This document shows, piece by piece, positions 1 to 57,334 of a stretch of DNA of 64,000 bases. The notes below the pieces were generated by a model. It searched no databases, was not told the origin of the DNA, and worked only from the letters and a program-made list of their open reading frames with translations. This stretch comes from a bacterium (lineage in GTDB: Bacteria; Vulcanimicrobiota; Xenobia; Xenobiales; Xenobiaceae). Every line of letters starts with the position of its first letter. Position 1 is the stretch's first letter. Both the position numbers and the translations under genes were made by a program. The stretch lies in the NCBI GenBank assembly GCA_017458675.1, contig JAFTAM010000096.1, positions 10,210-74,209 on the forward strand, in the 5' to 3' direction.

Positions 1-521
1 GGCTCCTTAAATTTAAATTATCAAAAGACATATCTCGGCCTATACCGCTTTTTCCCCTTCGAGCGGAAAATTGTATATCTTGCCTGTGCCGGCGGCTTTT
101 GTATTATTTAATAATATCCTGCGCTCAGCTGACGAAATATATTTAGCTCAAAAGAGCGCGCTGTCGGCAAGTTAACCAAAAGCAGCTTTAAACATGCATG
201 CTATGCACAGGTTTTGTTCTGTACAAGAGCGAACGTCCGAGTCATATGCAGCTGCGGAGTTAAATGCAGTACAAAACCGACATTGCGAAAACAAGCAGAA
301 CACGTTTGATAGATTCATCGCTGCGCGCTCAAAGACAGGGCAAACGTTTACAGGCATAATGCAGATATGCCGCAGCGCCATTTTCAGCGCAATACTGTCT
401 TAACTTAATGACTTTGCAAGGCGCTGCGGCGAAAACACCGCACAAAAGCGTATTCCGCCGGCCGGGAGAACGTCGGGCCGTTTGATATCGGCGATCTTTG
501 CGGAAAAGCGCTGAAGCTGAA

Positions 522-15451: not shown

Positions 15452-16261
15452 TTAAGGCTGAGCTTCGCCTTCATGCTGATGTTCATGAGCCTCTGGCGCG
15501 GCCTCGGCTTTGCTTTCATGCTGATGTTCATGAGCTTCGGGCGCGGCTTCGCCTTCTTGCTGATGTTCATGAGCTTCGGGCTGAGCTTCGCCTTCATGCT
15601 GATGTTCATGAGCCTCTGACGCGGCTTCGCCTTCGCCGCTGTGCCGGGCATGTTCATGATGATGCTCCTGCTCGGCGTTTTTCAGCAGTTCGTCGCGGCG
15701 CTCCTTATTGCGTTTGCGCGGATCAAACATCTGTTCAGGGTGCTGTTTGTATTTTACGCAGCGGGCCCGGAAATTTTTGGCTATTGCGTTGTCCGGCTCG
15801 AGGATGAGCGCCTTGTCAATTTCTTCTATGGCGCCGTCGAAGTCTTTGCTGAAAAATAAGGATTCCGCCAGGATATAGTGGAGGTGGTAGGTGTCGGGAA
15901 TATTTTTGATGGCTTGGCGGTAGATCTCGATCTCTTTGTCGTATTCGCCTTCAAAGTAGGCGAAGGCGCCCAGCTCCAGGTAAGGGGTCAGCAGCTCGGG
16001 ATCCAGTTCCATGGCTTTGGCAAAGGACTGCTTGGCCGCGTCAATGCTGCCGGCTTCGATCATCTGATGGCCGAACTCGCACAGCTCAACGGCGTCGGCG
16101 ATCCTTTGCCGCTTTTCCAGGGCGGGAGGCAGAAGCCAGAGCATAACGGCTATGCCGACGACGGCCAGTACTGCTTCTATAATCTGAAGCTTCTTTTTTT
16201 TAGGGTCCTTGTAATAGGCGAGAAAAGGCATAAGGCGTTTTTCCTCAATAATTATTTGCAA
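15452..16261 (-). CDS. TPR-repeat protein with N-terminal TM helix and C-terminal His-rich tandem repeats (HEHQHEGEAxPEA)
   Basis: 269 aa. TPR-like helical repeats (AKQSFAKAMELDPELLTPYLELG, YRQAIKNIPDTYHLHYILAE). The C-terminal 60 aa are His/Glu-rich repeats. Confidence 0.7.
   Translation of the reverse strand: MQIIIEEKRLMPFLAYYKDPKKKKLQIIEAVLAVVGIAVMLWLLPPALEKRQRIADAVELCEFGHQMIEAGSIDAAKQSFAKAMELDPELLTPYLELGAFAYFEGEYDKEIEIYRQAIKNIPDTYHLHYILAESLFFSKDFDGAIEEIDKALILEPDNAIAKNFRARCVKYKQHPEQMFDPRKRNKERRDELLKNAEQEHHHEHARHSGEGEAASEAHEHQHEGEAQPEAHEHQQEGEAAPEAHEHQHESKAEAAPEAHEHQHEGEAQP
15461..15640. repeat. Imperfect 39-45 bp tandem repeats (4 copies) encoding the His-rich tail
   Basis: CATGCTGATGTTCATGAGC recurs at 15471, 15516, 15555 and 15594. 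Confidence 0.75.
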
Positions 16262-29241: not shown

Positions 29242-29319
29242 CGGAGCATAGCGCAGTCTGGATAGCGCACTTGCTTTGGGAGCAAGGGGTCGCCGGTTCA
29301 AATCCGGCTGCTCCGACCA
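29242..29319 (+). tRNA. tRNA-Pro (anticodon TGG)
   Basis: Hand-folded cloverleaf: acceptor CGGAGCA/TGCTCCG, D-stem GCGC, anticodon loop TTTGGGA, T-loop TTCAAAT, CCA encoded. Confidence 0.85.
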
Positions 29320-29337
29320 TTATTAGGGTAAGAACGA

Positions 29338-29413
<76 letters not shown>

Positions 29414-29422
29414 ATTTTATAC

Positions 29423-29500
29423 GGTGGATATAGCTCAGTTGGTTAGAGCGCCGGTCTGTGGAACCGGAGGTCGTGGGTTCGAGTCCCACTATCCACCCCA
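29423..29500 (+). tRNA. tRNA-His (anticodon GTG) with genomically encoded G-1
   Basis: Acceptor GTGGATA/TATCCAC preceded by G-1, anticodon loop CTGTGGA, T-loop TTCGAGT, CCA encoded. Confidence 0.85.
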
Positions 29501-29508
29501 TGATATCT

Positions 29509-29583
29509 GGGTCGCTAGCTCAGTGGAAGAGCATCTGACTTTTAATCCGAGGGTCACAGGTTCGAGTCCTGTGCGACCCACCA
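29509..29583 (+). tRNA. tRNA-Lys (anticodon TTT)
   Basis: Acceptor GGGTCGC/GCGACCC, anticodon loop CTTTTAA, T-loop TTCGAGT, CCA encoded. One mismatch in the anticodon stem. Confidence 0.8.
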
Positions 29584-29614
29584 GAGCATCTTTAACAAGG
29601 TGCTCTTTTTTTTT
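29584..29614 (+). terminator. Rho-independent terminator of the tRNA operon
   Basis: GAGCATC-TTTAACAA-GGTGCTC followed by T9. Confidence 0.65.
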
Positions 29615-29728
29615 GTATTTTGAAGACGTAAATGGGAAGGCGCGGCCATGCTGCGGTGCTGCAGCGGGAATGTCCGCAGATTTAGTAGAAATAGCTTTGC
29701 TCAGATTAGCATTTTTTTTCGAGGTAGG

Positions 29729-30076
29729 ATGATGAAACAGAATATATTTCCGGCGGCGGCTTCCTTCAACGATGAAGAGAGAGCCAGGATAGTTATAAGA
29801 TGTCTGTCCGGCGAGAAGGAAGAGGATTTGGCCAGAGAGATCGGCACTACCCCCGCAGTAATTGAAAGCTGGGTGAGAAAGGCCGGCGACGCCGCTCAAG
29901 GCAAAAAACTGACCGAAGAACAGCAGGTAGCCGAGAAGGATATCCAGGAACAGGCTGCCGAGCTGCAGGAGACGATAGCCCGTCTGCAGATGCAGATCGA
30001 ACAGACCCGAAAAATGGAGGAGACGCGCCGCATAATACTTGAGGCCCGTACCTCTTCGGCGATATTTAAGAATTAA
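29729..30076 (+). CDS. Small HTH protein resembling IS3-family OrfA (Transposase_8/HTH_Tnp_1-like) with a C-terminal coiled coil; orphan, with no OrfB partner
   Basis: About 115 aa starting at ATGATG (29729), with GAGGTAGG RBS. ERARIVIRCLSGEKEEDLAREIGTTPAVIESWVRKA matches the OrfA HTH pattern. Lies immediately 3' of the tRNA cluster. Confidence 0.45.
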   Translation: MMKQNIFPAAASFNDEERARIVIRCLSGEKEEDLAREIGTTPAVIESWVRKAGDAAQGKKLTEEQQVAEKDIQEQAAELQETIARLQMQIEQTRKMEETRRIILEARTSSAIFKN

Positions 30077-33023: not shown

Positions 33024-33209
33024 ATTCCCAGCGGCAGAAGCGGCAAGGCGGCGTCTGCCGTTCCGAGCGGAGAGGCTGTAATTGAATCGCTGGATCTTTC
33101 GCCGGATGGGCAGGACGGCAAAAAGACTCTCATTCTGAGCGGAGCGAAAAATCTTGCGTATTTGAGCCGCTAAACTCATTAGGCCGGATTCGACAGAACG
33201 GCCGGTATC

Positions 33210-39307: not shown

Positions 39308-40531
39308 ATGAGCGATATGCTTTATAAGCGCTGGCTGGAAATGCTGGAAAAAAAAGAAGGTTTTGCCTTAATTACGGTTATTAAGGCCAAGGGCTCTACT
39401 CCCCGCGGAGCGGGTACAAAGATGTTGGTCGACAGCCTGGGGCGCGCTATAGGCACGATAGGCGGCGGCTGTCCGGAGGCCGAGGCCTGGCAGGAGGCTA
39501 AGCTTATCGCTTCCGAGGGCGGCTACTGTCTTCTCGATATAAATCTGGCCCATAGCGGCGATATTATCAAGGACGGCGGCGAGGCTATGATCTGCGGCGG
39601 CCGCCTGCAGGTCTTTATTGAGCATATCGCTCCGGACAGCGAGAAGAGCAGGCTTCTGCAGGCTGCTCTGGACAGCGTCCATAGGCGCGGCCTTAAGGAT
39701 ATTATAGGTATCGTCTGTTTGGGCGTTAAAGAAGGCGAGGACAGCGAGGAGCTTTTTCCCGCTCCGGCTATGCGCTTTATGTATTCCCGCACCGAAGGTC
39801 TGAGCGGCGGCGCCGAGGAGTGGAATAAGGCTGAAAATGCCGATTTAAAGAGACGCCTGACCGAATCGGCCGCCGAAGTTGAAGCGTCCGGTCTTCCTAA
39901 ACTGGCCGAAATAGAGCATAACGGGCGCGTCCTGGAGTTTTTTATAGAATCATTTAAGCCTTGCAGGCGTTTTTATATAGCCGGAGCCGGTCATGTTTCC
40001 CGTCCCCTGAGCGCTATTGCCAATATGTGCGGCTTTGCGGTCCACGTTAACGACGACCGCCCCGAATACGCCGATCCCAAGATGTTTGCCGAGGGCGTCA
40101 GAGTCGGGTCTCTGCCCTTCAAGGATTTTTTTGCTCCTGAGCGCTTGCAGTTGGATGAAAACTGTGCTGTCGTGCTGGTAACCCGCGGCCATAAGCATGA
40201 CGGGGAATGTCTGCGGGCTTTGATCGGCTGCCATGTCGGCTATCTGGGCATGATCGGCAGTCAAAGGCGTACGATTTTAATTAGGGAGCGTCTGCTGCGC
40301 GACGGCGTTGATCCCGAGTGGCTGGCTCAGGTTCATGCGCCCATAGGCCTTGACATTGGCGGTGAGACTCCCGAAGAGATCGCCGTCGCCATCATGGCCG
40401 AGGTCATCGCCGAATTCAACGGCGCTTCCAAAGCCTTAGAGGCGGGGCTGAGCGTAAGGCTGCGCTCCAAACTTCCGGATAAAGCGGACAGCCGCGCCTT
40501 TGAGTGTCCGGTTTCTCCCCAATGTAATTAA
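39308..40531 (+). CDS. XdhC/CoxI-family protein (molybdenum-hydroxylase maturation factor-like), orphan
   Basis: 407 aa. The N-terminal XdhC_CoxI domain (FALITVIKAKGSTPRGAGTKMLVD...GGGC) plus a C-terminal Rossmann domain (FYIAGAGHVSRPL). Confidence 0.75.
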   Translation: MSDMLYKRWLEMLEKKEGFALITVIKAKGSTPRGAGTKMLVDSLGRAIGTIGGGCPEAEAWQEAKLIASEGGYCLLDINLAHSGDIIKDGGEAMICGGRLQVFIEHIAPDSEKSRLLQAALDSVHRRGLKDIIGIVCLGVKEGEDSEELFPAPAMRFMYSRTEGLSGGAEEWNKAENADLKRRLTESAAEVEASGLPKLAEIEHNGRVLEFFIESFKPCRRFYIAGAGHVSRPLSAIANMCGFAVHVNDDRPEYADPKMFAEGVRVGSLPFKDFFAPERLQLDENCAVVLVTRGHKHDGECLRALIGCHVGYLGMIGSQRRTILIRERLLRDGVDPEWLAQVHAPIGLDIGGETPEEIAVAIMAEVIAEFNGASKALEAGLSVRLRSKLPDKADSRAFECPVSPQCN

Positions 40532-40639
40532 GCTGAGCAGTTTTTAACTCTGTAAATATGAACGGCGGCAGGTTCTCTGCCGCCGTTCCGCATATTGCGC
40601 CATTTTTTTGTCGATATAGCGCCGCGAAGACTTTGTCAA

Positions 40640-41180
40640 ACATGTTTTGCGTATTATCGTTATGCCGGTTTTGTTTTGTGCTTCGCTCCGCGACTGCGCT
40701 TCGCTCACGACGCTCGCTTTAGTGCAAAACAAAACCTGTGCAAAGCGTGTCTGCTGAAAGCCTGTTTTTGCTCAGCACGCTCGGCGTGTTTTCGCTATGC
40801 CGGTTTTCTTTGCCGTTACCGCTCCGCGCTCGCTTCGCTCGAATCTCCGCGTACACGTCAAAGAAAACCTCTATTAAGCATGTATGCTGAAAGCCTGTTT
40901 TTGCTCAGCATGCTCGGCGTGTGTTCGCTATGCCGGTTTTCTTTGCCGTTACCGCTCTGCGCTCGCTTCGCGCGAATCTCCGCGTACACGTCAAAGAAAA
41001 CCTCGATTAAGCATGTCTGCTGAAAGCGCGTTTTGTCAGCAAGCTCTGTTTGTTTTTGCTATGCCGGTTTTCTTTGTCGTTACCGCTCCGCGCTCGCTTC
41101 GCTCGAATCTCCGCGTACACGTCAAAGAAAACCTCTATTAAGCATGTCTGCTGAAAGCGCGTTTTTGTTCAGCATGCTCC
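40640..41180. repeat. Tandem array of 131-133 bp units (about 4 copies, first diverged), each with an internal 11-15 bp inverted repeat
   Basis: The GCTGAAAGC anchor recurs at 40753, 40886, 41019 and 41150. Each unit has GGTTTTCTTTG...(about 50 nt)...CAAAGAAAACC. The diverged copy has GGTTTTGTTTTG...CAAAACAAAACC, which is compensatory. Confidence 0.85.
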
Positions 41181-41183
41181 GCG

Positions 41184-41210
41184 TGTCATTCTGAGCGCCG
41201 CGAAGAATCT
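41184..41210. repeat. Copy of the dispersed REP-like element (GTCATTCTGAGCGCCGCGAAGAATCT)
   Basis: Same element at 33128-33157, 39204-39226, 42998-43026, 53290-53317 and 53354-53384, with an inverted partial copy at about 53428-53445. Confidence 0.6.
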
Positions 41211-41238
41211 TATAATGCCTGTTTTTGTATGCGCAATA

Positions 41239-42675
41239 TTACAGCTTTTCCGTGCAGGCGCTCAGGGTTTCAACTATCTGATTCTGGGCGTTTACGGCGT
41301 TCCAAATTTCGGTATTGTTGCAGAGAACGGAAAACTCCAGCTCCTGACCGGCCTGGGTCATTACGTATCCTGTTAAGGAGGAATCGTGCGCCAGGGTTCC
41401 GGTTTTGGCCCGGACGTCGATTCCGCCCAGGCGGCCGCGCAGCGTGCCTTTGCCGCTGTGGGGGAGGCTGTCTTTGAACCAGCGGCGGTAATAGCTGCGC
41501 TGCATAGTGTCGAGCACTTCCACCAGCTGATGGGGAGTGATGCGGTTGTCGGGCGAAAGGCCGCAGCCGTCAACCATATATAAATTTTCGGGATCTATAT
41601 TGTGACTGGATAAAAAGGTTTGACAGGCCTTATAGCCGGTGTCGGCGCTGCCGCGGCCGTGACTGATCTGTCCTATGACTTTGTAGAGATGTTCGGCAAA
41701 AAGGTTGTCGCTTTCGTGGTTGATTTCCCGGCATATTTCCGAAACCGGCAAAGAATAGTGAGAGGCGTACAGATTGAGCTCTTCGACGCAGGCGGCTTCT
41801 CCGTTTTTGCCGATTAAGCGGGTTTGTCCCTTGACCTTTATGCCGGCCTGATTGAGCATGCTTTTAAAAACGCCTATGGCAAAGAGAGGCGGACTTTCGA
41901 CGCAGATCTGATTGCGCACATTTCCGTTATTGGCGCCCTTTACGGTTATAATATTGCTGCCCTTGGGACGCTCTACCAGCGGCGCCCCGCCGTCGTCCAA
42001 AAGTTTGACGCCCATAGTCGCGCAGGAAGGGTTGAAGGCGCACTGACCGTCTATGACGGACACCTCTATCAAGTTGCCGTTTAAGGAGAGAGAACCCACC
42101 GGAGCGGCAAAGGAGTCGAGGCGGTAGTTGTCTTTCCAGCCCTTGGGGAGATATTCGCGGTCAAAAGCGGAATCGTCGGCCACCAGATCGCCGGCGATAG
42201 ATTTCACTCCGGCTTCTTTAAGTCTCTTTATAAATTTTTCGTAAGGCCGGGTGCAGGGGGTGTCGTAGGGCGGAGTAGTAGTCGGATCGCCGCTGCCGCG
42301 CAGATACAAATTTCCCTGTATTTCTCCGTTTTGATCGGGCAGGCCGCCTCTCAGCTCAGTTTTCAGTCTGTAGTTGGGCCCCAGCAGGTTTAAAGAAGCG
42401 GCGGTGGTCAGAATTTTAAGGTTGGAGGCCGGCACCAGCGGCGTATTGCCGTCGGCGGAAAATACGATGCGGCCGCTTTCGGGGACTTTGACGCAAACGC
42501 CGATCAGCGTATCGGGCTTGGTTTTGGCATTTCTGACGATAGCGGAAAGCTGCTGCTTGAGCTGCACGGTCTGGTCGTATGAGGCGTTGGCCTTACAGCT
42601 GTAAAAATGGACGGAAAAACAGAGCGCAGCGGCGGAAAAAGCGGCCAGCAGAGTTTTGCATAAGGAGCGGTTCAT
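41239..42675 (-). CDS. dacB: D-alanyl-D-alanine carboxypeptidase/endopeptidase, PBP4 (peptidase S13) family
   Basis: 478 aa with a signal peptide. Conserved S13 blocks (VPASNLKILTTAASL, an SxN-like region, KTGTLAHDSSLTGYV). Confidence 0.85.
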   Translation of the reverse strand: MNRSLCKTLLAAFSAAALCFSVHFYSCKANASYDQTVQLKQQLSAIVRNAKTKPDTLIGVCVKVPESGRIVFSADGNTPLVPASNLKILTTAASLNLLGPNYRLKTELRGGLPDQNGEIQGNLYLRGSGDPTTTPPYDTPCTRPYEKFIKRLKEAGVKSIAGDLVADDSAFDREYLPKGWKDNYRLDSFAAPVGSLSLNGNLIEVSVIDGQCAFNPSCATMGVKLLDDGGAPLVERPKGSNIITVKGANNGNVRNQICVESPPLFAIGVFKSMLNQAGIKVKGQTRLIGKNGEAACVEELNLYASHYSLPVSEICREINHESDNLFAEHLYKVIGQISHGRGSADTGYKACQTFLSSHNIDPENLYMVDGCGLSPDNRITPHQLVEVLDTMQRSYYRRWFKDSLPHSGKGTLRGRLGGIDVRAKTGTLAHDSSLTGYVMTQAGQELEFSVLCNNTEIWNAVNAQNQIVETLSACTEKL

Positions 42676-42785
42676 AAAGGCATCCGGGTTTCAAGAGTGC
42701 GTTTTTATGGACTTTTTTTATATTTGCGGATTAGTTTTTCCTTTATAAAAAAGCCGAAAAACGAAAATGTTTATGGACGTGTCCG

Positions 42786-42905
42786 CATGTATTCGCTGTT
42801 TCGGTTTTCTTTGCTGCGCCGCTGCGCGTCAGCTTTGCTCGAATTCCCGTGTGCGCTTCAAATACAACTATATTTTAGAACATCTGCCGTAAGTCTGTTT
42901 TGCTG
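42786..42905. repeat. Degenerate single copy of the 131-bp repeat unit downstream of dacB
   Basis: CGGTTTTCTTTGCTGCGCCGCTGCGCG...TCTGTTTTGCTGAA aligns to the unit. The second half of the inverted repeat is decayed. Confidence 0.5.
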
Positions 42906-42997
42906 AATTGATCGCCGGTGTTTCTCTCCCTGAACGTTCGGAACTCTCCTCTTTATCAAACTGTGCTTTCCCGCTTGTCATCTCAAGCTTCTCTTCT

Positions 42998-43026
42998 TGT
43001 CATCCTGAGCGCAGCGAAGGATCTTT
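42998..43026. repeat. Copy of the dispersed REP-like element (GTCATCCTGAGCGCAGCGAAGGATCT)
   Basis: Matches the 41184 copy with 3 substitutions. Preceded by a partial duplication (CTTGTCATCTCAAGC). Confidence 0.55.
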
Positions 43027-43241
43027 ACCATTTTATTCTGTCTGATTTTGCCGCTGCGCGCTCGCTTTCGTTTTCTGAAACTCAGAATTCAGCGAAATGA
43101 AAGAATAGCTGTTTTCGCTGTTTTCCAATTTTAGAAGTAATAATTTTTGGGATATAATTTAATAATGGCGTCAATACAACCGCTGATTAAATGCGAGGTA
43201 AGAGCTTGTATATTGCAGCGTCAGGATTATGGAGGGAAAAA

Positions 43242-43737: not shown

Positions 43738-45699
43738 TTATCTGTGGCCTCTGCGTCCGCCGCCGACGTGCGTCGAGGAATGAGACGAAGAGTGCGAGGG
43801 CCTGCTCACCGAGTGGGTCGAGGTGCGCGGTGTGGAGCTGTAGCTTGATGAGGGCCTGCTCACCGAGTGGGTCGAGGTGCGCGGTGTGGAGCTGTAGCTT
43901 GAGGATGGCCTGCTTACCGTGCTGCCGGAACTGCGAGGCGAAGAGGTGTAGGAGGGGGTGGACTGCGTTCTTACCGTATAGGATGATGAGCGCGGGGACG
44001 AGGTATAGGAGGGAGTTCCGAAGATATTGGTTTTTGACCTGGACGGAGCCGGCGAGGGGTTATAGGTCTTGGTAGGCGAGTTCTGAACCGTTACCGGAGA
44101 CGATACATAGGAAGGTCTGGAAGGGCTGGAGCCGCTTCGGCCCGAGTTTACTGAACCGGATGGGGAGTAGGACTTGCTGGGGTTGTAAGACCTTGCCGGA
44201 GCAGATGACGAACTTCCGGAGGGCTTGTAGCCTGGAGGCGCGATTCGGCTGCCGGAGCTTTGCGTCGGCGCGGAACTTTTAAGCCTGGCGGGATCAAACG
44301 TGGGATGGCTGGCTGAAGCGGGCTTGCTGACTGCGGCGGGTCTGCTGGCTGAAGCGGGTCTGCTGACTGCAGCGGGCCTGGCTGACGAACCTACCGTGCT
44401 TGAAGGGCGGCTGGGCGTATACTGCGGCCGGTTGGCGGTATTGGTCTGAACTCGGGAAGAGCTCGGAGAATTCTGAGATTTGGGAGCAGCGGGCAGATTG
44501 GGAGTACTGCTGTAAATTTTGCTGCCGTGATGAGCCGGACGGGCAGGCTGAGCGCTCGTACCGATATGGCTGGGCTGACTGCCGGAATTGATGCGGTTGG
44601 GCTGATATCCGGGATTAGGGCGTGCGCTCTGAGGACGGCCGTCGGGGCGTTTAGCTGAAGCTGCGGCGGTCTTTGTTTTGTTCATGCTGCTGCCGCCGAC
44701 CACTCCGTTATTGACGGAACGGCGCGGACCGTTGTGGATATAGCCGCCGCCGAGCTGTTCGCTGGGAATGGGCGAAGAAGCGTGATGATTGCCGCCCGGA
44801 TAATTATTGTGCCAGTGATGAGGATCGTGGTGGGGATCGTGATGATGGTCGTGATGATGGTCATGGTGCGGCGGATGGGGCATGGGCTTGGGGCGATAGG
44901 GTTCGGGACGCGGCGGCGGAGGCGGCGGCGGATAGTGACGGGGATGATCGTACCAGGGGTACCAGCGATGATCGTAATAGCGGTAATATCCGTAGCCGGG
45001 GCCCCACCACATGTCATGGTTGTACCAGTCCCAGGAGCTGGTGCAGAAGATAGCCGCGGTTACTAAAGCCAGACTGCCCCAGATGATGGCGGCGTCTGAG
45101 GTGTTCGTATAGGCGTAGCGGCTGGAGCCCGGGTAGTCGTAAACGACGACGGGATCGTAGGTGGGAACGACTATAGTGTCGGCGCTGGCCGGAGTAATAT
45201 AGATATATTCCTTTTCCTTGACAACTTTGACGTCTTTGGTCGAGGTCAGGGTACCGGTATTGTAGGCATTGTTGCGCAGCTTCTGGATGGAAGTGTACAT
45301 CTCGTCGTTTTTGTTGGAGAAAATGTAGGCCAGATCGTTGGTCCAGTCCATGTTTTCCGCCATATAATTGATGACGTCGGGAGTTACCACCAGCAGCGAA
45401 ACCACGCTTTCGTTCCAGTTTTTATATTTAACCAGATCGGAAATTTTATCGATGGGAACGTCGGAATTCGATTTGTACCAATTGTTGGCTTCTATAATCT
45501 GATCCGGATAGGTAGAAGCGATCAGCACACTCCCCAGCAGCGAATCCGGATAGAGAGCTATCGGAGCTAAAGTTTTATCTATATCAGTATAGACCGCTTT
45601 CTGTACCGTCGTCGTGCCGGCATAAGCCATGAAGGGCATTCCGAGGCTGACGGCGGCGCCTAGGGCCAGGCCTATAATTATTTTTTCAAACTTATGCAT
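43738..45699 (-). CDS. DUF3300-like secreted protein with poly-Pro, His-rich (HHDHHHDHHHD) and long Ser/Pro/Thr-rich repetitive tail
   Basis: 653 aa with a signal peptide. The N-terminal about 200 aa form a globular domain (LAPIALYPDSLLGSVLIASTYPDQIIEANNW). The rest is low-complexity with exact 18-aa repeats. Confidence 0.65.
   Translation of the reverse strand: MHKFEKIIIGLALGAAVSLGMPFMAYAGTTTVQKAVYTDIDKTLAPIALYPDSLLGSVLIASTYPDQIIEANNWYKSNSDVPIDKISDLVKYKNWNESVVSLLVVTPDVINYMAENMDWTNDLAYIFSNKNDEMYTSIQKLRNNAYNTGTLTSTKDVKVVKEKEYIYITPASADTIVVPTYDPVVVYDYPGSSRYAYTNTSDAAIIWGSLALVTAAIFCTSSWDWYNHDMWWGPGYGYYRYYDHRWYPWYDHPRHYPPPPPPPRPEPYRPKPMPHPPHHDHHHDHHHDPHHDPHHWHNNYPGGNHHASSPIPSEQLGGGYIHNGPRRSVNNGVVGGSSMNKTKTAAASAKRPDGRPQSARPNPGYQPNRINSGSQPSHIGTSAQPARPAHHGSKIYSSTPNLPAAPKSQNSPSSSRVQTNTANRPQYTPSRPSSTVGSSARPAAVSRPASASRPAAVSKPASASHPTFDPARLKSSAPTQSSGSRIAPPGYKPSGSSSSAPARSYNPSKSYSPSGSVNSGRSGSSPSRPSYVSSPVTVQNSPTKTYNPSPAPSRSKTNIFGTPSYTSSPRSSSYTVRTQSTPSYTSSPRSSGSTVSRPSSSYSSTPRTSTHSVSRPSSSYSSTPRTSTHSVSRPSHSSSHSSTHVGGGRRGHR
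43797..43904. repeat. 54-bp coding tandem repeat (2 exact copies plus decayed copies further 3') encoding SSYSSTPRTSTHSVSRPS
   Basis: GGGCCTGCTCACCGAGTGGGTCGAGGTGCGCGGTGTGGAGCTGTAGCTTGATGA occurs twice consecutively. Confidence 0.8.
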
Positions 45700-53590: not shown

Positions 53591-54604
53591 TTGAAAATAA
53601 ATAATCGCCGATATTTAGGCAATAAATATAAACTGCTTCCTTTTATTAAGAAGATTATTTCAGAAGAATGTGTCGACGTTAAGACCTTTTTTGATGTGTT
53701 TGCAGGTACTGGGGCGGTGGCGTCAGCTTTTTTAGATAAAGAACTGATAGTAAACGATATTTTATACAGCAATTATCTGGCCCATTTAACCTGGTTAAGC
53801 GCAGAAGCTTATAGCGGAGAAAAAATAGCCGCTTGCATAGATTTTTACAACAGTCTGAAAGATATAGCTTCCGATAATTATATGTCTGTAAATTTTGCCA
53901 ATACCTATTTTTCTTATGAAGTTTGTAAGAAAATCGGTTTTATAAGAGAGGATATTGAACAGAAATTTGCGGCAGGCTGTTTAAACAGGCGCGAACATGC
54001 AATGTTGGTGACTTCGCTGCTGTATGCTATAGATAAAATCGCCAATACCTGCGGTCATTACGATGCTTATCGTAAGAACGTTAGTTACTCGAATAACTTT
54101 ATTATGGAAGTTCCGGAAATAGAAAAGGAAGGTCTAAAGAGCAACAGCTTTTATACTGAAGATTCCAACGAGCTTGTAAAGAGAATTGTTTGTGACTTGG
54201 CTTATTTAGACCCTCCCTATAACAGCCGCCAATATTGTGATGCCTACCATTTACCGGAAAATATCGCCAGGTGGGAAAAACCGAAGGTCTACGGAGTTGC
54301 AGGGAAGATGGATCGCAGCGGTTTGAAAAGCGCTTACTGTACTCAAAAGGCTGTATCGGCCTTTGCTGATTTAATTAGCAAGCTGCGCTGCAGATATATA
54401 GTGCTTTCTTATAATAATACAGGCGAAGGCGCAGATGGCAGAAGTAATGCTAAAATAAGCGATGACGCAATAATGCGCATTCTATCGGCAAAGGGGCAAG
54501 TTACGGTGTTTTCTCAGTCATATAAAGCCTTTTCTGCCGGAAAGTCTGAGAATAATCATAATCAGGAAAGGCTGTTTTTATGCAAAGTCAATGCCAAATC
54601 ATAG
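53591..54604 (+). CDS. D12-class N6-adenine DNA methyltransferase (M1) of a Type IIS-like RM system
   Basis: 337 aa. Dam-family motifs: N-terminal RYLGNKYKLLP (SAM-binding) and the catalytic DPPY (LAYLDPPYN). AT-rich. Confidence 0.85.
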   Translation: MKINNRRYLGNKYKLLPFIKKIISEECVDVKTFFDVFAGTGAVASAFLDKELIVNDILYSNYLAHLTWLSAEAYSGEKIAACIDFYNSLKDIASDNYMSVNFANTYFSYEVCKKIGFIREDIEQKFAAGCLNRREHAMLVTSLLYAIDKIANTCGHYDAYRKNVSYSNNFIMEVPEIEKEGLKSNSFYTEDSNELVKRIVCDLAYLDPPYNSRQYCDAYHLPENIARWEKPKVYGVAGKMDRSGLKSAYCTQKAVSAFADLISKLRCRYIVLSYNNTGEGADGRSNAKISDDAIMRILSAKGQVTVFSQSYKAFSAGKSENNHNQERLFLCKVNAKS

Positions 54605-55503
54605 CTTCACCTTTAAATTATACCGGCGGAAAGGCCAGACTGTTTCCGCAGATTAGACCTTTATTTCCTGATTATATTAATACTTTTGTCGATCTTTTCT
54701 GTGGCGGCTGTAATGTAGGTATAAATACAAAAGCTGAACGGTATTATTATAATGATATATCCGAACCTTTAATTGGCCTTTATCAAACCTTTCTTGAAGT
54801 TTCAGAGGATGAACTAATAAGCGATTTTGATAGAATCATCAACAGTTATAATTTATCAGACAGTACAAAGCACACCTACGAATATTATTCCTGCAACAGT
54901 TCTGAAGGCTTGGCTGCTTATAATAAGAGCAAATTTGAAAATATAAGAGACGATTTCAATGCTCTCACCCAAAAAGATAAATACTATTATGAGCTGTTCT
55001 ATATGCTTATTGTTTTCGGATTTAACAATCAGATTCGTTTTAATAAGAATGGACAGTTTAATTTACCAGTAGGTAAAAGAGATTTTAATTTTAAGATACG
55101 AAGAAAGCTATCAGCTTTTTTAAAGGTCTTGAAAAAACAGAAGCCTGTAATTACTAATATCCATTTTAATGATTACGATATGTCTCATTTGAATGATGAT
55201 TGCTTTGTCTATTGCGATCCTCCTTATCTGATTGCTACAGCGGCATATAATGAAAATGGTAAGTGGACTGAAAAGGAGGAATATGAATTATTGGGTCTTT
55301 TGGATAGACTGAACGCAAAGAAGCTTCGTTTTGCTTTGTCAAATGTATTAAGTCATAAGGGCAAAGAGAACAAACTGCTAAAGCGGTGGACTGAGAAAAA
55401 CAGATATAAGGTTCATCATTTAAATTTTGGTTATACGAACTCAAATTATCATACTAAGGATAAAGTAAATCTCTCCGATGAAGTTTTAATAGTGAATTAT
55501 TAA
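54580..55503 (+). CDS. Second D12-class N6-adenine DNA methyltransferase (M2)
   Basis: 307 aa. LNYTGGKARL and VYCDPPYL motifs. Overlaps M1 by 25 nt. Confidence 0.85.
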   Translation: MQSQCQIIASPLNYTGGKARLFPQIRPLFPDYINTFVDLFCGGCNVGINTKAERYYYNDISEPLIGLYQTFLEVSEDELISDFDRIINSYNLSDSTKHTYEYYSCNSSEGLAAYNKSKFENIRDDFNALTQKDKYYYELFYMLIVFGFNNQIRFNKNGQFNLPVGKRDFNFKIRRKLSAFLKVLKKQKPVITNIHFNDYDMSHLNDDCFVYCDPPYLIATAAYNENGKWTEKEEYELLGLLDRLNAKKLRFALSNVLSHKGKENKLLKRWTEKNRYKVHHLNFGYTNSNYHTKDKVNLSDEVLIVNY

Positions 55504-55516
55504 GGTTGGTGAAATT

Positions 55517-57334
55517 ATGGAAACTTTGTGGAGTATGAGTACGACGGTTCGTGAAGCGGAAAGAATAATTGGATTTTTGCAGACCGCTTTAGAGCTGGAT
55601 GGTGAAGTCTGGAATAAAGATAATCAAAAAAAATTTCAGATTTTACTGATAAAAAACAGACAGTATCTAAATGATCCGGACAATACGCAGTCATTCAGTA
55701 AGCTGTCGGCAGAACAAGTCTCGTTACTTAAAGATAAATCTGTACGAATGACTTACGAACAGGCGAAAGAGATATTTGAAGCCAAAGATTATAATGATCC
55801 TCCTATGCGCGGCAGACAGTCGATGTCTCCTTTAACAAAATTAGGTTTGGTCTATATTGAAAAAGATAAAAGGGTGGCAGTGTCTGATGTAGGGCATAGA
55901 TTGATCAATGGGGATATTGATTTCTCTGATTTTATGTTGGAAGCGCTTTTAAAATTTCAGTATCCCAATCCTTATGAAAGCGGTTTTAAAACTTGGGATA
56001 CAAAGCCGTTTATAAATACTCTTCGTTTAATTAAGCTTGTAAACGAAAAATGCAGAGAAAACGGTTTAAAGGAAAAAGGAATTTCCAAAATTGAATTTGG
56101 CATATTCGCTTTATCGCTGCAGTCGTTTGAACTGGTTGAAAAAACTGCGGCTGAAATTTTAGAATTCAGAAAGATGTATGAAGCTTATACCGATGAAGCG
56201 TTAAGAGATAAATATATAAGCGATTATATTAAGGAGTATTTAGGCGCATTTAAAAATCCTGAAAAAAATATCAAAGAATATACCGATAATATGATTCGTT
56301 ATTTAAGGTTGACAAAATATATTTACATCAGAGGTAAATATGCTAACACCTATATCGACCTTGAACCCAGAAGAATGACTGAGATTAATTCCATATTGGA
56401 GGCAGATGATGGAAGCGCACAAGCTTTTTCAGATGAAGAGTGGCGTAACTATATGGGTATATACGGAAAGTATAGTTTGCCGTTTGAAACTGTCGAAAAA
56501 CTGTCAGAAATAGTCCAGGGTATTCAGCATGATATCAATAGAATAGAAGGTAAAATTGGCTTAAAACTTACAAGGATAGAATTATGCAGTCAAAAAGAAG
56601 CTTTGAAGCAACAGATAGATAAGCTGAGATTATACAGAACTGAGCTGCAGAATCTGGAACTAAAGAAAGATTATCACGAAGATATTAAAAAAATTGAAGA
56701 AGCTATAGAATCATTAGAAGAGATAAGAAAACGCAATAAAGCCGGGTTGTCAAAAAAATTCTCCATAGAATTGGAAAAATGGGCCAATGTCGCTTTAAAT
56801 GTTATAAACGACGCCATACTTATTAAACCAAACTATCCCGTCGGCGACGATAATGAACCGATTTATACTGCTCCGAACGGGGCGCCTGATATAGAATGCT
56901 ATTACGATAGTTTTGGAGCAATATGTGAAGTTACCATGCTGACGAGCAGAGATCAATGGTACAATGAGGGCCAGCCGGTAATGCGTCATCTGCGACAGTT
57001 TGAAGTCAAAAACAGCCGTTTGCCTAACTACTGCTTATTTGTGGCGCCTTCTTTACATATAGACACCGTAAACACTTTTTATATGTCTGTAAAATATGAA
57101 TATGAAGGTGCAGCGCAAAAGATTATTCCTATAACGATTTCGCAGTTAGAAAATATTTTAGAGGCAGTTAAGCAATTGATTATAAAAGGGAAAACTTTAC
57201 CGCATTCTGAGATAATGAAACTGTATGATCGCTGCTGCAGTATTGCCGGCTTGAGCAGCTCGAAATTATGGTTAGAACATATTGCAAAAGAATTAAATTC
57301 CTGGTTTGAAGGGCTGGCTGCTTTGGCAGTATAG
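55517..57334 (+). CDS. Putative Type IIS restriction endonuclease or nicking enzyme of the AlwI/PleI/MlyI/N.BstNBI family
   Basis: 605 aa, which matches the size of N.BstNBI/PleI. A PD...(D/E)xK-like segment (APDIECYYDSFGAICEVT). Sits downstream of two Dam-like MTases, the signature arrangement of asymmetric-site IIS systems. Confidence 0.55.
   Translation: METLWSMSTTVREAERIIGFLQTALELDGEVWNKDNQKKFQILLIKNRQYLNDPDNTQSFSKLSAEQVSLLKDKSVRMTYEQAKEIFEAKDYNDPPMRGRQSMSPLTKLGLVYIEKDKRVAVSDVGHRLINGDIDFSDFMLEALLKFQYPNPYESGFKTWDTKPFINTLRLIKLVNEKCRENGLKEKGISKIEFGIFALSLQSFELVEKTAAEILEFRKMYEAYTDEALRDKYISDYIKEYLGAFKNPEKNIKEYTDNMIRYLRLTKYIYIRGKYANTYIDLEPRRMTEINSILEADDGSAQAFSDEEWRNYMGIYGKYSLPFETVEKLSEIVQGIQHDINRIEGKIGLKLTRIELCSQKEALKQQIDKLRLYRTELQNLELKKDYHEDIKKIEEAIESLEEIRKRNKAGLSKKFSIELEKWANVALNVINDAILIKPNYPVGDDNEPIYTAPNGAPDIECYYDSFGAICEVTMLTSRDQWYNEGQPVMRHLRQFEVKNSRLPNYCLFVAPSLHIDTVNTFYMSVKYEYEGAAQKIIPITISQLENILEAVKQLIIKGKTLPHSEIMKLYDRCCSIAGLSSSKLWLEHIAKELNSWFEGLAALAV

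Follow-up and report, generated by a model that had tools for sequence, protein, structure and literature searches.

The bacterial interspersed mosaic elements (BIMEs) of Escherichia coli are mosaics of motifs, and the mycobacterial interspersed repetitive units (MIRUs) of Mycobacterium tuberculosis are units of 40–100 bp, both dispersed and in tandem, which lie between genes and in some cases within operons; MIRUs are without dyad symmetry and carry small open reading frames (ORFs) whose translation is coupled to that of their neighbours. In Streptococcus pneumoniae, the BOX elements (boxA-boxB(n)-boxC) contain an internal module in variable tandem number (PMC3049150). REPIN clusters are ordered tandem sets of up to four hairpins, more than 700 bp in total, in which compensatory changes are common, and folding is proposed to take place in single-stranded DNA or in mRNA (PMC3116915). 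Here we analyse a tandem repeat array located between the 3' ends of a convergent XdhC-family gene and the gene of penicillin-binding protein 4 (PBP4), in a 64,000-nt stretch (the window) of contig JAFTAM010000096.1. The host, a gut bacterium, belongs to the class Xenobia (Vulcanimicrobiota); its nearest named relative is Ca. Bruticola (PBP4 60% identical).

The array probably arose by local tandem amplification of the internal module of a lineage-specific, non-coding mosaic family of hairpin modules, which resembles MITEs (miniature inverted-repeat transposable elements). The family is new and homologous to none of the elements named above, and the kind of element is well known; no sequence homology of its units to described modules was found in Rfam, plasmid or phage searches. 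The original prediction, made from the letters of the window, had left three identities open, namely a tandemly amplified small structured RNA, a MITE/REP-type element or an array of protein-binding sites. The second is favoured by the evidence given below, and the tandem small RNA gene found no support.

The Xenobia element shares with BOX a composite intergenic build, an internal module variable in tandem number, an extensive predicted fold, variation between strains and the lack of coding capacity (PMC3049150). Unlike BOX, to which it has no sequence relationship, it has a module of 133 nt (boxB measures 45 nt), resides in a different phylum, includes a 27-nt hairpin that we call M, and is associated with target-site duplications of 9–10 bp. 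The likeness to BOX and to BIMEs appears, on comparison, to be one of architecture only. With the REPIN/REP sequences of Pseudomonas fluorescens SBW25 and the BIMEs of E. coli it has in common extragenic hairpin units in tandem clusters. In contrast to REPINs, its stem arms are not REP-type mini-palindromes, no gene for a RAYT (REP-associated tyrosine transposase) is seen in the window, target-site duplications are present, and the conserved 5' word, that of M, is TGTC and not GTAG. Like the MITEs Correia, ERIC, RUP and Nezha it is small, non-coding, intergenic and highly base-paired, with terminal inverted repeats and target-site duplications (PMC3049150). It departs from them in that the main conserved stem is internal rather than terminal, internal modules amplify in tandem, and no parent insertion sequence (IS) was found in the window. 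It differs from MIRUs in that its units are hairpins without a conserved frame.

Architecture of the array and of the dispersed family

Tandem Repeats Finder detected one strong tandem array in the window (40743–41186; period 133, 3.4 copies, 91% matches, score 741), and the start-to-start spacings of its units in a repeat search are 135, 133, 133 and 131. Phased by its flanks, the array comprises four full head-to-tail units of 127–136 bp (40652–41186), in agreement with the original prediction of about four copies of 131–133 bp. The order of modules is M'(degenerate)-linker-B-A-A-A-M-linker'(truncated), where A and B are two subtypes of the unit (Table 1); the two direct M copies, at 40612–40634 and 41184–41210, bound the array on both sides. 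The three A units (u1–u3) adjoin directly, with no head module or M between them, and differ at 5–9% of positions, an arrangement that would point to local duplication rather than to repeated insertion. The second hairpin of u2 carries a 2-nt deletion, and u3 is 97.7% identical to a copy beside RND efflux genes in L001 (L001, L067, L190–L194 and similar labels denote other DNA stretches examined). The first unit (u0), which had been taken for a mutated neighbour of the others, turned out to belong to subfamily B, present at other loci: its nearest relative is the B copy of L067 (76%), and the copy at 158–293 of the window is 68% identical.

At the left edge, the interval between the degenerate M and the first stem equals that between M and stem at other loci, and positions 40632–40676 are 73% identical to 40767–40811 (repeat search). 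The GC-rich hairpin that precedes it is likely the terminator of the xdhC-like gene, with the array beginning after it. At the right edge, the truncated linker is flush with the PBP4 stop codon. Both the PBP4 array (41224–41241) and one of the L192 copies (L192a, L192 765–780) end in GCGMAATATTAC/AG, flush with the stop of the convergent gene (TAA, other strand).

The repeat is not confined to one side of PBP4. An nhmmer profile built from u1–u3 only matched 42782–42868 (E = 1e-10), so that the decayed copy announced across the gene was recovered, with a full extent of 42788–42921; its right arm is mutated (CAAATACAAC) and its stem partly broken. The span 40640–42905 first assigned to the feature consists mostly of the PBP4 gene, and repeat DNA occupies 40612–41238 and 42788–43105. 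Nor is the repeat confined to this locus: the same profile matches a copy near the window start, on the minus strand (158–293), and further copies are dispersed elsewhere. The original prediction described the array; that the family is dispersed, that a 27-nt motif lies at the flanks, and that terminal inverted repeats and target-site duplications exist had been overlooked.

The unit occurs at at least 11 loci within the approximately 100 kb of lineage DNA examined. Profile and covariance-model searches located copies at three loci of the window, where the covariance model detected no full unit copy beyond six. Outside the window, copies lie at the RND efflux operon and the OEP-upstream region of L001 and, among unrelated flanking genes, in L067, L190/L191, L192 (two), L193 and L194; the extra loci were recovered through spurious ORFs assigned to the repeat by gene callers. 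The covariance model, a search proposed in the original prediction, was built from nine copies and gave 66–138 bits to family members outside its training set.

Each unit carries a stem of 15–16 bp, here called H1, a base helix of 5 bp and a weaker second hairpin. Subtype A has the stem GGTTTTCTTTG..., then ...AAAACCTYTATTAAGCATG, and its copies are 76–98% identical between loci; subtype B has GGTTTTGTTYTG..., then ...AAAACCTGTGYAWAGCRTG, with copies 68–76% identical. At several loci the units are preceded by a head of about 110 nt, which starts CAATGTCATTAAGTTAAG, by the 27-nt M (TGTCATYCTGAGCGNNGCGAAGRATCT) and by a linker of about 30 nt homologous to the unit–unit junction. The head end has its inverted partner in the 3' half of the second hairpin (CTTAACTTRCCGACAG). 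The order is head-M-linker-A-B at L067, L191 and L192b, head-M-linker-B-A at L193 and head-M-linker-B at 158–408 of the window. Every locus is intergenic, and the number of units varies from 1 to 4, in varying order. Family copies can be sought with GCTCGAATCTCCGCGTACRCGTCAAAGAAAACC together with the head end CAATGTCATTAAGTTAAG.

The window segment 294–408 is 81% identical to L067 392–526 despite unrelated flanking genes. L067 was considered as the orthologue of the window fliG locus with one extra unit; the unrelated flanking genes refute this and make L067 a paralogous copy. The fliG locus itself contains two FliG paralogues (330 and 333 aa) in tandem in the flagellar cluster, at 522–1514 of the window and beyond the window start (L068 10001–12520), and the repeat element lies in the 525-nt spacer between them.

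Table 1. Repeat modules and adjoining features in the window
Feature	Position	Strand	Basis
B unit between two fliG paralogues, stem GGTTTTGTaCTG / CAGaACAAAACC	158–293	-	covariance model, 109.6 bits
Linker, degenerate M (311–337) and head of the same composite; left end CAAAGTCATTAAGTTAAG	294–408	-	multi-locus alignment
Solo, slightly degenerate M TCTCATTCTGAGCGGAGCGAAAAATCT, intergenic	33128–33154	+	pattern search
XdhC-family gene	39308–40531	+	Pfam
GC-rich hairpin GAACGGCGGCAG-gttct-CTGCCGCCGTTC just 3' of the xdhC-like gene	40560–40588		read from sequence
Degenerate M (..AGCGCCGCGAAGACT..), left edge of array	40612–40634	+	comparison with M copies at 41184 and 42998
Linker between M' and first unit	40635–40651	+	homologous to unit–unit junction and to linkers of other loci
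u0, subtype B	40652–40786	+	covariance model, 122.6 bits (copy itself in training set)
u1, subtype A; arms 40802–40816 and 40855–40869	40787–40922	+	154.5 bits
Mini-hairpin words, minus strand (examples)	40827–40844, 40971, 41091–41108	-	
u2, subtype A; arms 40935–40949 and 40988–41002	40923–41049	+	114.6 bits
u3, subtype A; arms 41066–41080 and 41119–41133	41051–41186	+	150.6 bits
M TGTCATTCTGAGCGCCGCGAAGAATCT closing the array	41184–41210	+	pattern search and fold
Truncated linker copy TATAATGCCTGTTTTTGTATGCGCAATATTAC	41211–41238	+	comparison with linkers of other loci
PBP4 / D-Ala-D-Ala carboxypeptidase gene (Peptidase_S13); flanked gene, outside the element	41239–42675	-	domain annotation
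Decayed A-like unit upstream of PBP4	42788–42921	+	nhmmer
Two 22-nt repeats of the M 5' half (CTTGTCATC...) leading into canonical M TGTCATCCTGAGCGCAGCGAAGGATCT (42998–43024)	42965–43024	+	repeat and pattern search, fold
Further unit remnant (TTGCCGCTGCGCGCTCGCTTTCG...)	43044–43105	+	weak nhmmer match (E = 0.03); 90% identity to unit core

Compensatory change in the internal stem

The internal inverted repeat was found as predicted, with arms GGTTTTCTTTGCCGT and ACGTCAAAGAAAACC of 15 nt, 93% complementary and 38 nt apart, in each of u1–u3. In u0 both arms are changed together (GGTTTTGTTTTG / CAAAACAAAACC), again as first noted: one C-G pair is swapped to G-C and a matched T/A insertion lengthens the stem (GGTTTTGTTTTGTGCT / AGTGCAAAACAAAACC) to 16 pairs, 2 of them G.U. 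RNAalifold and pair counts support two helices, H1 (16 pairs) and a 5-bp base helix (TATGC with GCATG) that closes H1 across an 8-nt bulge. Among 11 MAFFT-aligned copies, 87% of cells pair, compared with 34–58% when the partners are slid; 8 pairs are changed on both sides, and the covariation score was reached by 0 of 500 shuffles. A model-guided alignment of 12 distinct copies, new loci included, gave 86% paired cells and 9 pairs changed on both sides. Most of the double changes separate only the two subfamilies and therefore represent few independent events. The second hairpin is well formed in the array units and poorly conserved elsewhere. As an instance of compensatory evolution in nature, the internal hairpin of this repeat is a clean one.

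The units are non-coding. Indels between copies measure 1–2 nt in every case, the period cannot be divided by 3 and no frame stays open throughout; a coding role for the embedded ORFs, already suspected to be artefacts, is therefore rejected. CRISPR is likewise ruled out, as had been proposed, since the units adjoin without unique spacers and no cas-like domains are encoded nearby. A false lead is thereby removed, the array being neither a gene nor a PBP4-specific regulator.

Quasipalindrome correction, a hairpin-templated repair mechanism, could keep the arms complementary with no selection on the stem, the array then being a neutral minisatellite. The stem changes, mostly clean Watson–Crick swaps between two subfamilies and few as independent events, would suit such a process. 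The excess of G.U over A.C cells is not expected from it, however, and the arms drift apart in decayed copies (42788–42921 and L191B), so that we hold it to be very improbable. H1 is preserved by compensatory change, which indicates that single-strand folding is of importance to the element. The stem would persist most plausibly because it serves propagation or persistence of the element, or because it makes read-through transcripts harmless.

H1 may matter either as RNA or as single-stranded DNA. The inference from covariation to a folded RNA or DNA structure stands as far as the stem is concerned; covariation alone does not establish RNA. Among the cells of H1 and the base helix, G.U combinations (20 cells in 8 pair columns) outnumber A.C (3 cells in 2 columns), which points to folding in the sense of the unit. 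Orientation is informative at five loci, in all of which the unit is in sense to the upstream gene; convergent and divergent sites are uninformative. Both u1 and u2 bear a terminator-like hairpin followed by a T run, and single A units, folded as the original prediction had suggested, gave z-scores of −2.4 to −2.9. These features are compatible with a functional structured RNA in which the units are transcribed as modules of 3' untranslated regions or as tandem small RNA genes and H1 is selected in the RNA, for example as a transcript-end stabiliser, attenuator or regulator. We nevertheless consider such an RNA unlikely. No Rfam family was recognized (4 tRNAs only at the gathering threshold, and chance-level matches up to E = 10), and promoter- and terminator-like sites reach the same counts in shuffled sequence, with the reservation that the consensus may not be that of the host phylum. 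At three loci the element follows the apparent terminator of the upstream gene, many copies are decayed, and presence or absence differs between sister species.

Words of the DNA mini-hairpin class (GCGNAGC/GCGNNAGC) show an approximately ten-fold enrichment at the H1 apex on its minus strand (30 versus 3 in 16 copies, the background being 1.4 per kb per strand), which speaks against selection in a unit-sense RNA. The central word varies among copies (GCGAAGC, GCGCAGC, GCGTAAGC) and belongs to the same class throughout. GC skew is positive across the window and units lie on both strands, so that their orientation is independent of the direction of replication.

Signs of insertion and mobility, and apparent lineage restriction

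Two loci carry the marks of insertion. At L191 the head-M-linker-A composite has inverted ends, TGTCATAAAGTTAAG (440–454) and CTTAACTTACCGACA (678–692), 15 nt long and 80% complementary, and an exact 10-bp duplication, GTCTTAGCCA, at 427–436 and 696–705 adjoins the element ends. At L067 an exact 9-bp duplication, GGCGTATGA, at 375–383 and 777–785 surrounds the whole head-...-A-B composite. Both target-site duplications adjoin the start of multi-locus homology (CAAT...), a boundary drawn independently, and the chance of one such duplication at a fixed boundary is estimated at about 1e-4. Inverted ends read by eye match at 11/15 positions at the window fliG locus and at about 10/18 in L067. The composites are 260–400 bp long and non-coding. 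To judge from its sequence, the L191 segment, inside the linker of a B unit with its own upstream M, looks like a nested insertion; if it was inserted, the unoccupied site would read ...GCCTGTCTTAGCCATGTCGG.... The 3' half of the second hairpin serves as the right inverted end, so that a composite can take its right end from any unit.

By mechanism, the family groups with MITEs on account of its target-site duplications and inverted ends, which count against a RAYT-type single-strand mechanism. Under the latter, the hairpins would be single-stranded DNA substrates of a single-copy Y1 (HUH) transposase, with M as the REP and its 5' TGTC in the role of GTAG. Hairpin units, tandem clusters of about four units and compensatory changes do match REPIN clusters (PMC3116915), and M consists of a conserved 5' tetranucleotide followed by a hairpin, often, among the matches listed, in inverted pairs 0–46 nt apart; the strand asymmetry would also fit single-strand recognition. 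We find this mechanism quite improbable all the same. Exact duplications of 9 and 10 bp are unexpected for Y1 transposition, the arms of H1 (GGTTTTCTTTGCCGT) are not small palindromes (M is one, but is not an H1 arm), no Y1_Tnp gene was found among the window ORFs, and GC skew is uniform over a stretch in which both strands carry units.

The MITE-like interpretation leads to the following scenario. Composites would insert into intergenic DNA with target-site duplications of 9–10 bp, as the duplications at two loci suggest, through a transposase whose gene presumably lies elsewhere in the genome. A headless M-linker-B-A downstream of xdhC would have multiplied its A unit, through slippage or unequal recombination, to reach three copies. 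For the host, the outcome would be a block of stable hairpins between two convergent genes.

Several observations weigh against this interpretation. No clear target-site duplication was found at the fliG locus (158–408), in contrast to the two loci above, and the inverted ends are imperfect (72–80%). A Pfam search of 40 window ORFs and about 10 annotated genes of the flagellar region, a few short ORFs at 61–63 kb being left out, revealed no transposase or autonomous element with matching ends. Cut- or copy-and-paste transposition needs the ends only, and the MITE model alone does not explain the compensated internal H1. The copy number of the array comes from one assembly, the others available for the species ending inside the repeat, and the family survey draws on the 100 kb or so mentioned above.

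Apart from one ORF with an HTH_Tnp_1 match, the Pfam matches of the window correspond to ordinary housekeeping, flagellar and restriction-modification genes. This ORF (142 aa, 29648–30076), whose match is below threshold (23.9 bits, cutoff 24.1), may be an IS remnant; it is preceded by a tRNA cluster (Pro, Arg, His, Lys), the whole occupying 29242–30076.

Comparison with relatives bears on the age of the array. In a sister species (PBP4 90% identical) no array is present in the 139 nt downstream of PBP4, a stretch that reaches the xdhC 3' end and contains only a different hairpin (terminator), and no copy lies upstream of PBP4. In Ca. Bruticola the array site is a mere 90-nt spacer; its upstream intergenic region was read by eye. 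Unit-specific patterns gave zero matches in two metagenome-contig scans and one viral scan, and the array had no blastn match in plasmid and phage collections. Only three spurious ORFs resemble a translation of the repeat among 1.84 billion representative proteins. A genome-contig scan with the AT-rich pattern AGGTTTTN{40,68}AAAACCGNCATNRCRA returned 59 chance matches in unrelated taxa, none of them family members by nhmmer. From these sequence comparisons the array looks recent and the family lineage-restricted.

The array is of modest interest in its own right. A structured, apparently mobile repeat family is documented here in an uncultured gut lineage of Vulcanimicrobiota (Eremiobacterota), and its varying copy number offers markers for strain typing. 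The family would also explain why metagenome assemblies break, and once mis-join, at repeat sites. L001 11437–11900 joins PBP4 to the RND efflux operon through a shared A unit, while the window joins PBP4 to xdhC; this junction is due either to chimeric assembly across the repeat or to a genuine rearrangement between strains. In L193, at about 810–853, a public contig ends in Illumina adapter (AGATCGGAAGAGCACACGTCTGAACTCCAGTCAC) right after a repeat unit, an assembly artefact at a repeat-induced contig end.

The M motif and other repeats of the organism

M is likely the part of the finding that will best repay study. Its 27-nt consensus, TGTCATYCTGA-GCGNAGC-GAAGRATC, folds into two stems, one of 5 bp and a GC stem of 2 bp, with a GA/GA internal loop between them and a triloop. 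The core, GA-GCGNAGC-GA, contains the GCGNAGC mini-hairpin mentioned above. GCGNAGC heptamers are reported to melt at 70–76 °C and to occur at the single-stranded DNA priming sites of phage G4 and ssiA (PMC13037366). M differs from them by a covarying 5-bp outer stem and a fixed 5' TGTC, and by being an interspersed genomic repeat; a repeat of this kind is not described in the mini-hairpin review (PMC13037366). In the part of the literature that we searched, no description of the M sequence or of its spurious peptide translations was found.

In the window the M pattern has 3 matches, compared with 0.08 expected. The copy at 42998–43024 has the heptamer GCGCAGC and with it the GNA loop, whereas that at 41184–41210 has a GCC loop (GCGCCGC) instead of the usual GNA and falls outside the GCGNAGC class. 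Nearest-neighbour folding of M gave z-scores near 0, and the exceptional stability reported for such hairpins was not reproduced. Tandem repeats of about 22–27 nt of the M 5' half (..TGTCATCCTGAGCC..) precede a full M at two sites: about six copies downstream of an RND efflux gene (L001 11640–11830, read on the minus strand) and two copies at 42965–43004 of the window, upstream of the ORF at 43191.

Outside the lineage, M was found in at least 120 viral stretches (L070–L189), for a chance expectation estimated well below one; among the matches listed, the contigs range from 32% to 70% GC. In the 137 distinct instances listed, the one stem position left free in the pattern covaries perfectly (T-A 81, C-G 55, T.G 1, C.A 0), the loop A is kept in 135, and an inverted partner lies downstream in 39, mostly 0–46 nt away. 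A sense-strand bias of M was looked for and not seen in the listed viral matches (30 same/same versus 26 opposite/opposite, with crude ORF calls), and the apparent bias in the Xenobia organism rests on few informative loci. Clustering of the ORFs within 1.5 kb of M at the 120 listed viral loci revealed no recurrent M-linked gene, only phage structural proteins.

M is also present, at 27/27 identity, on plasmids of Calothrix sp. PCC 7716. On plasmid p3 (AP025021.1; L195 2420–2790) it lies (2501–2648) inside three iteron-like tandem repeats of about 117 nt, within a hypothetical coding sequence immediately downstream of a DnaB helicase gene. This context may link M to replication or priming.

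A more ambitious interpretation is that M is an undescribed interspersed element, spread across phyla and phages and endowed with a conserved single-strand function, of which the Xenobia A and B units are a lineage-specific elaboration. M would then, for example, act as a signal in priming or replication, or be the hairpin that a widespread HUH-type enzyme recognizes. The A and B units, in which GCGNAGC-type words crowd the opposite strand of the stem apex, would not be plain selfish repeats. We regard this as distinctly unlikely. The Calothrix repeats beside the helicase gene, together with the regular 131–135 bp spacing of the Xenobia units, also recall an array of protein-binding sites, whether centromere-like, iteron-like or bound by a nucleoid protein, with a role specific to its locus. 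Units occur singly, and decayed, at many unrelated loci, however; the array is absent from close relatives with the same gene order, and no origin-like GC-skew feature is present here, which makes a binding-site array extremely unlikely. The MITE-like family of hairpin modules, of which M is one component, remains the interpretation that we prefer.

Intergenic DNA of this organism is generally repeat-rich. In L001 (15330–15500) an unrelated tandem repeat of about 66 nt, in two copies, is followed by M in the spacer of membrane-fusion and RND pump genes. The other tandem repeats of the window sit in coding sequence (15462–15634, 43796–43919 and 44308–44386) and include a 39/78-nt repeat at the edge of a TPR protein gene and 54-nt and 18/36-nt repeats in the Ser/Pro-rich tail of a DUF3300 protein. 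Finally, the window contains a restriction-modification module (53591–57334) with two D12-class N6-adenine methyltransferases and an AlwI-family endonuclease, whose low GC content (0.43 compared with about 0.53 elsewhere) suggests horizontal acquisition.

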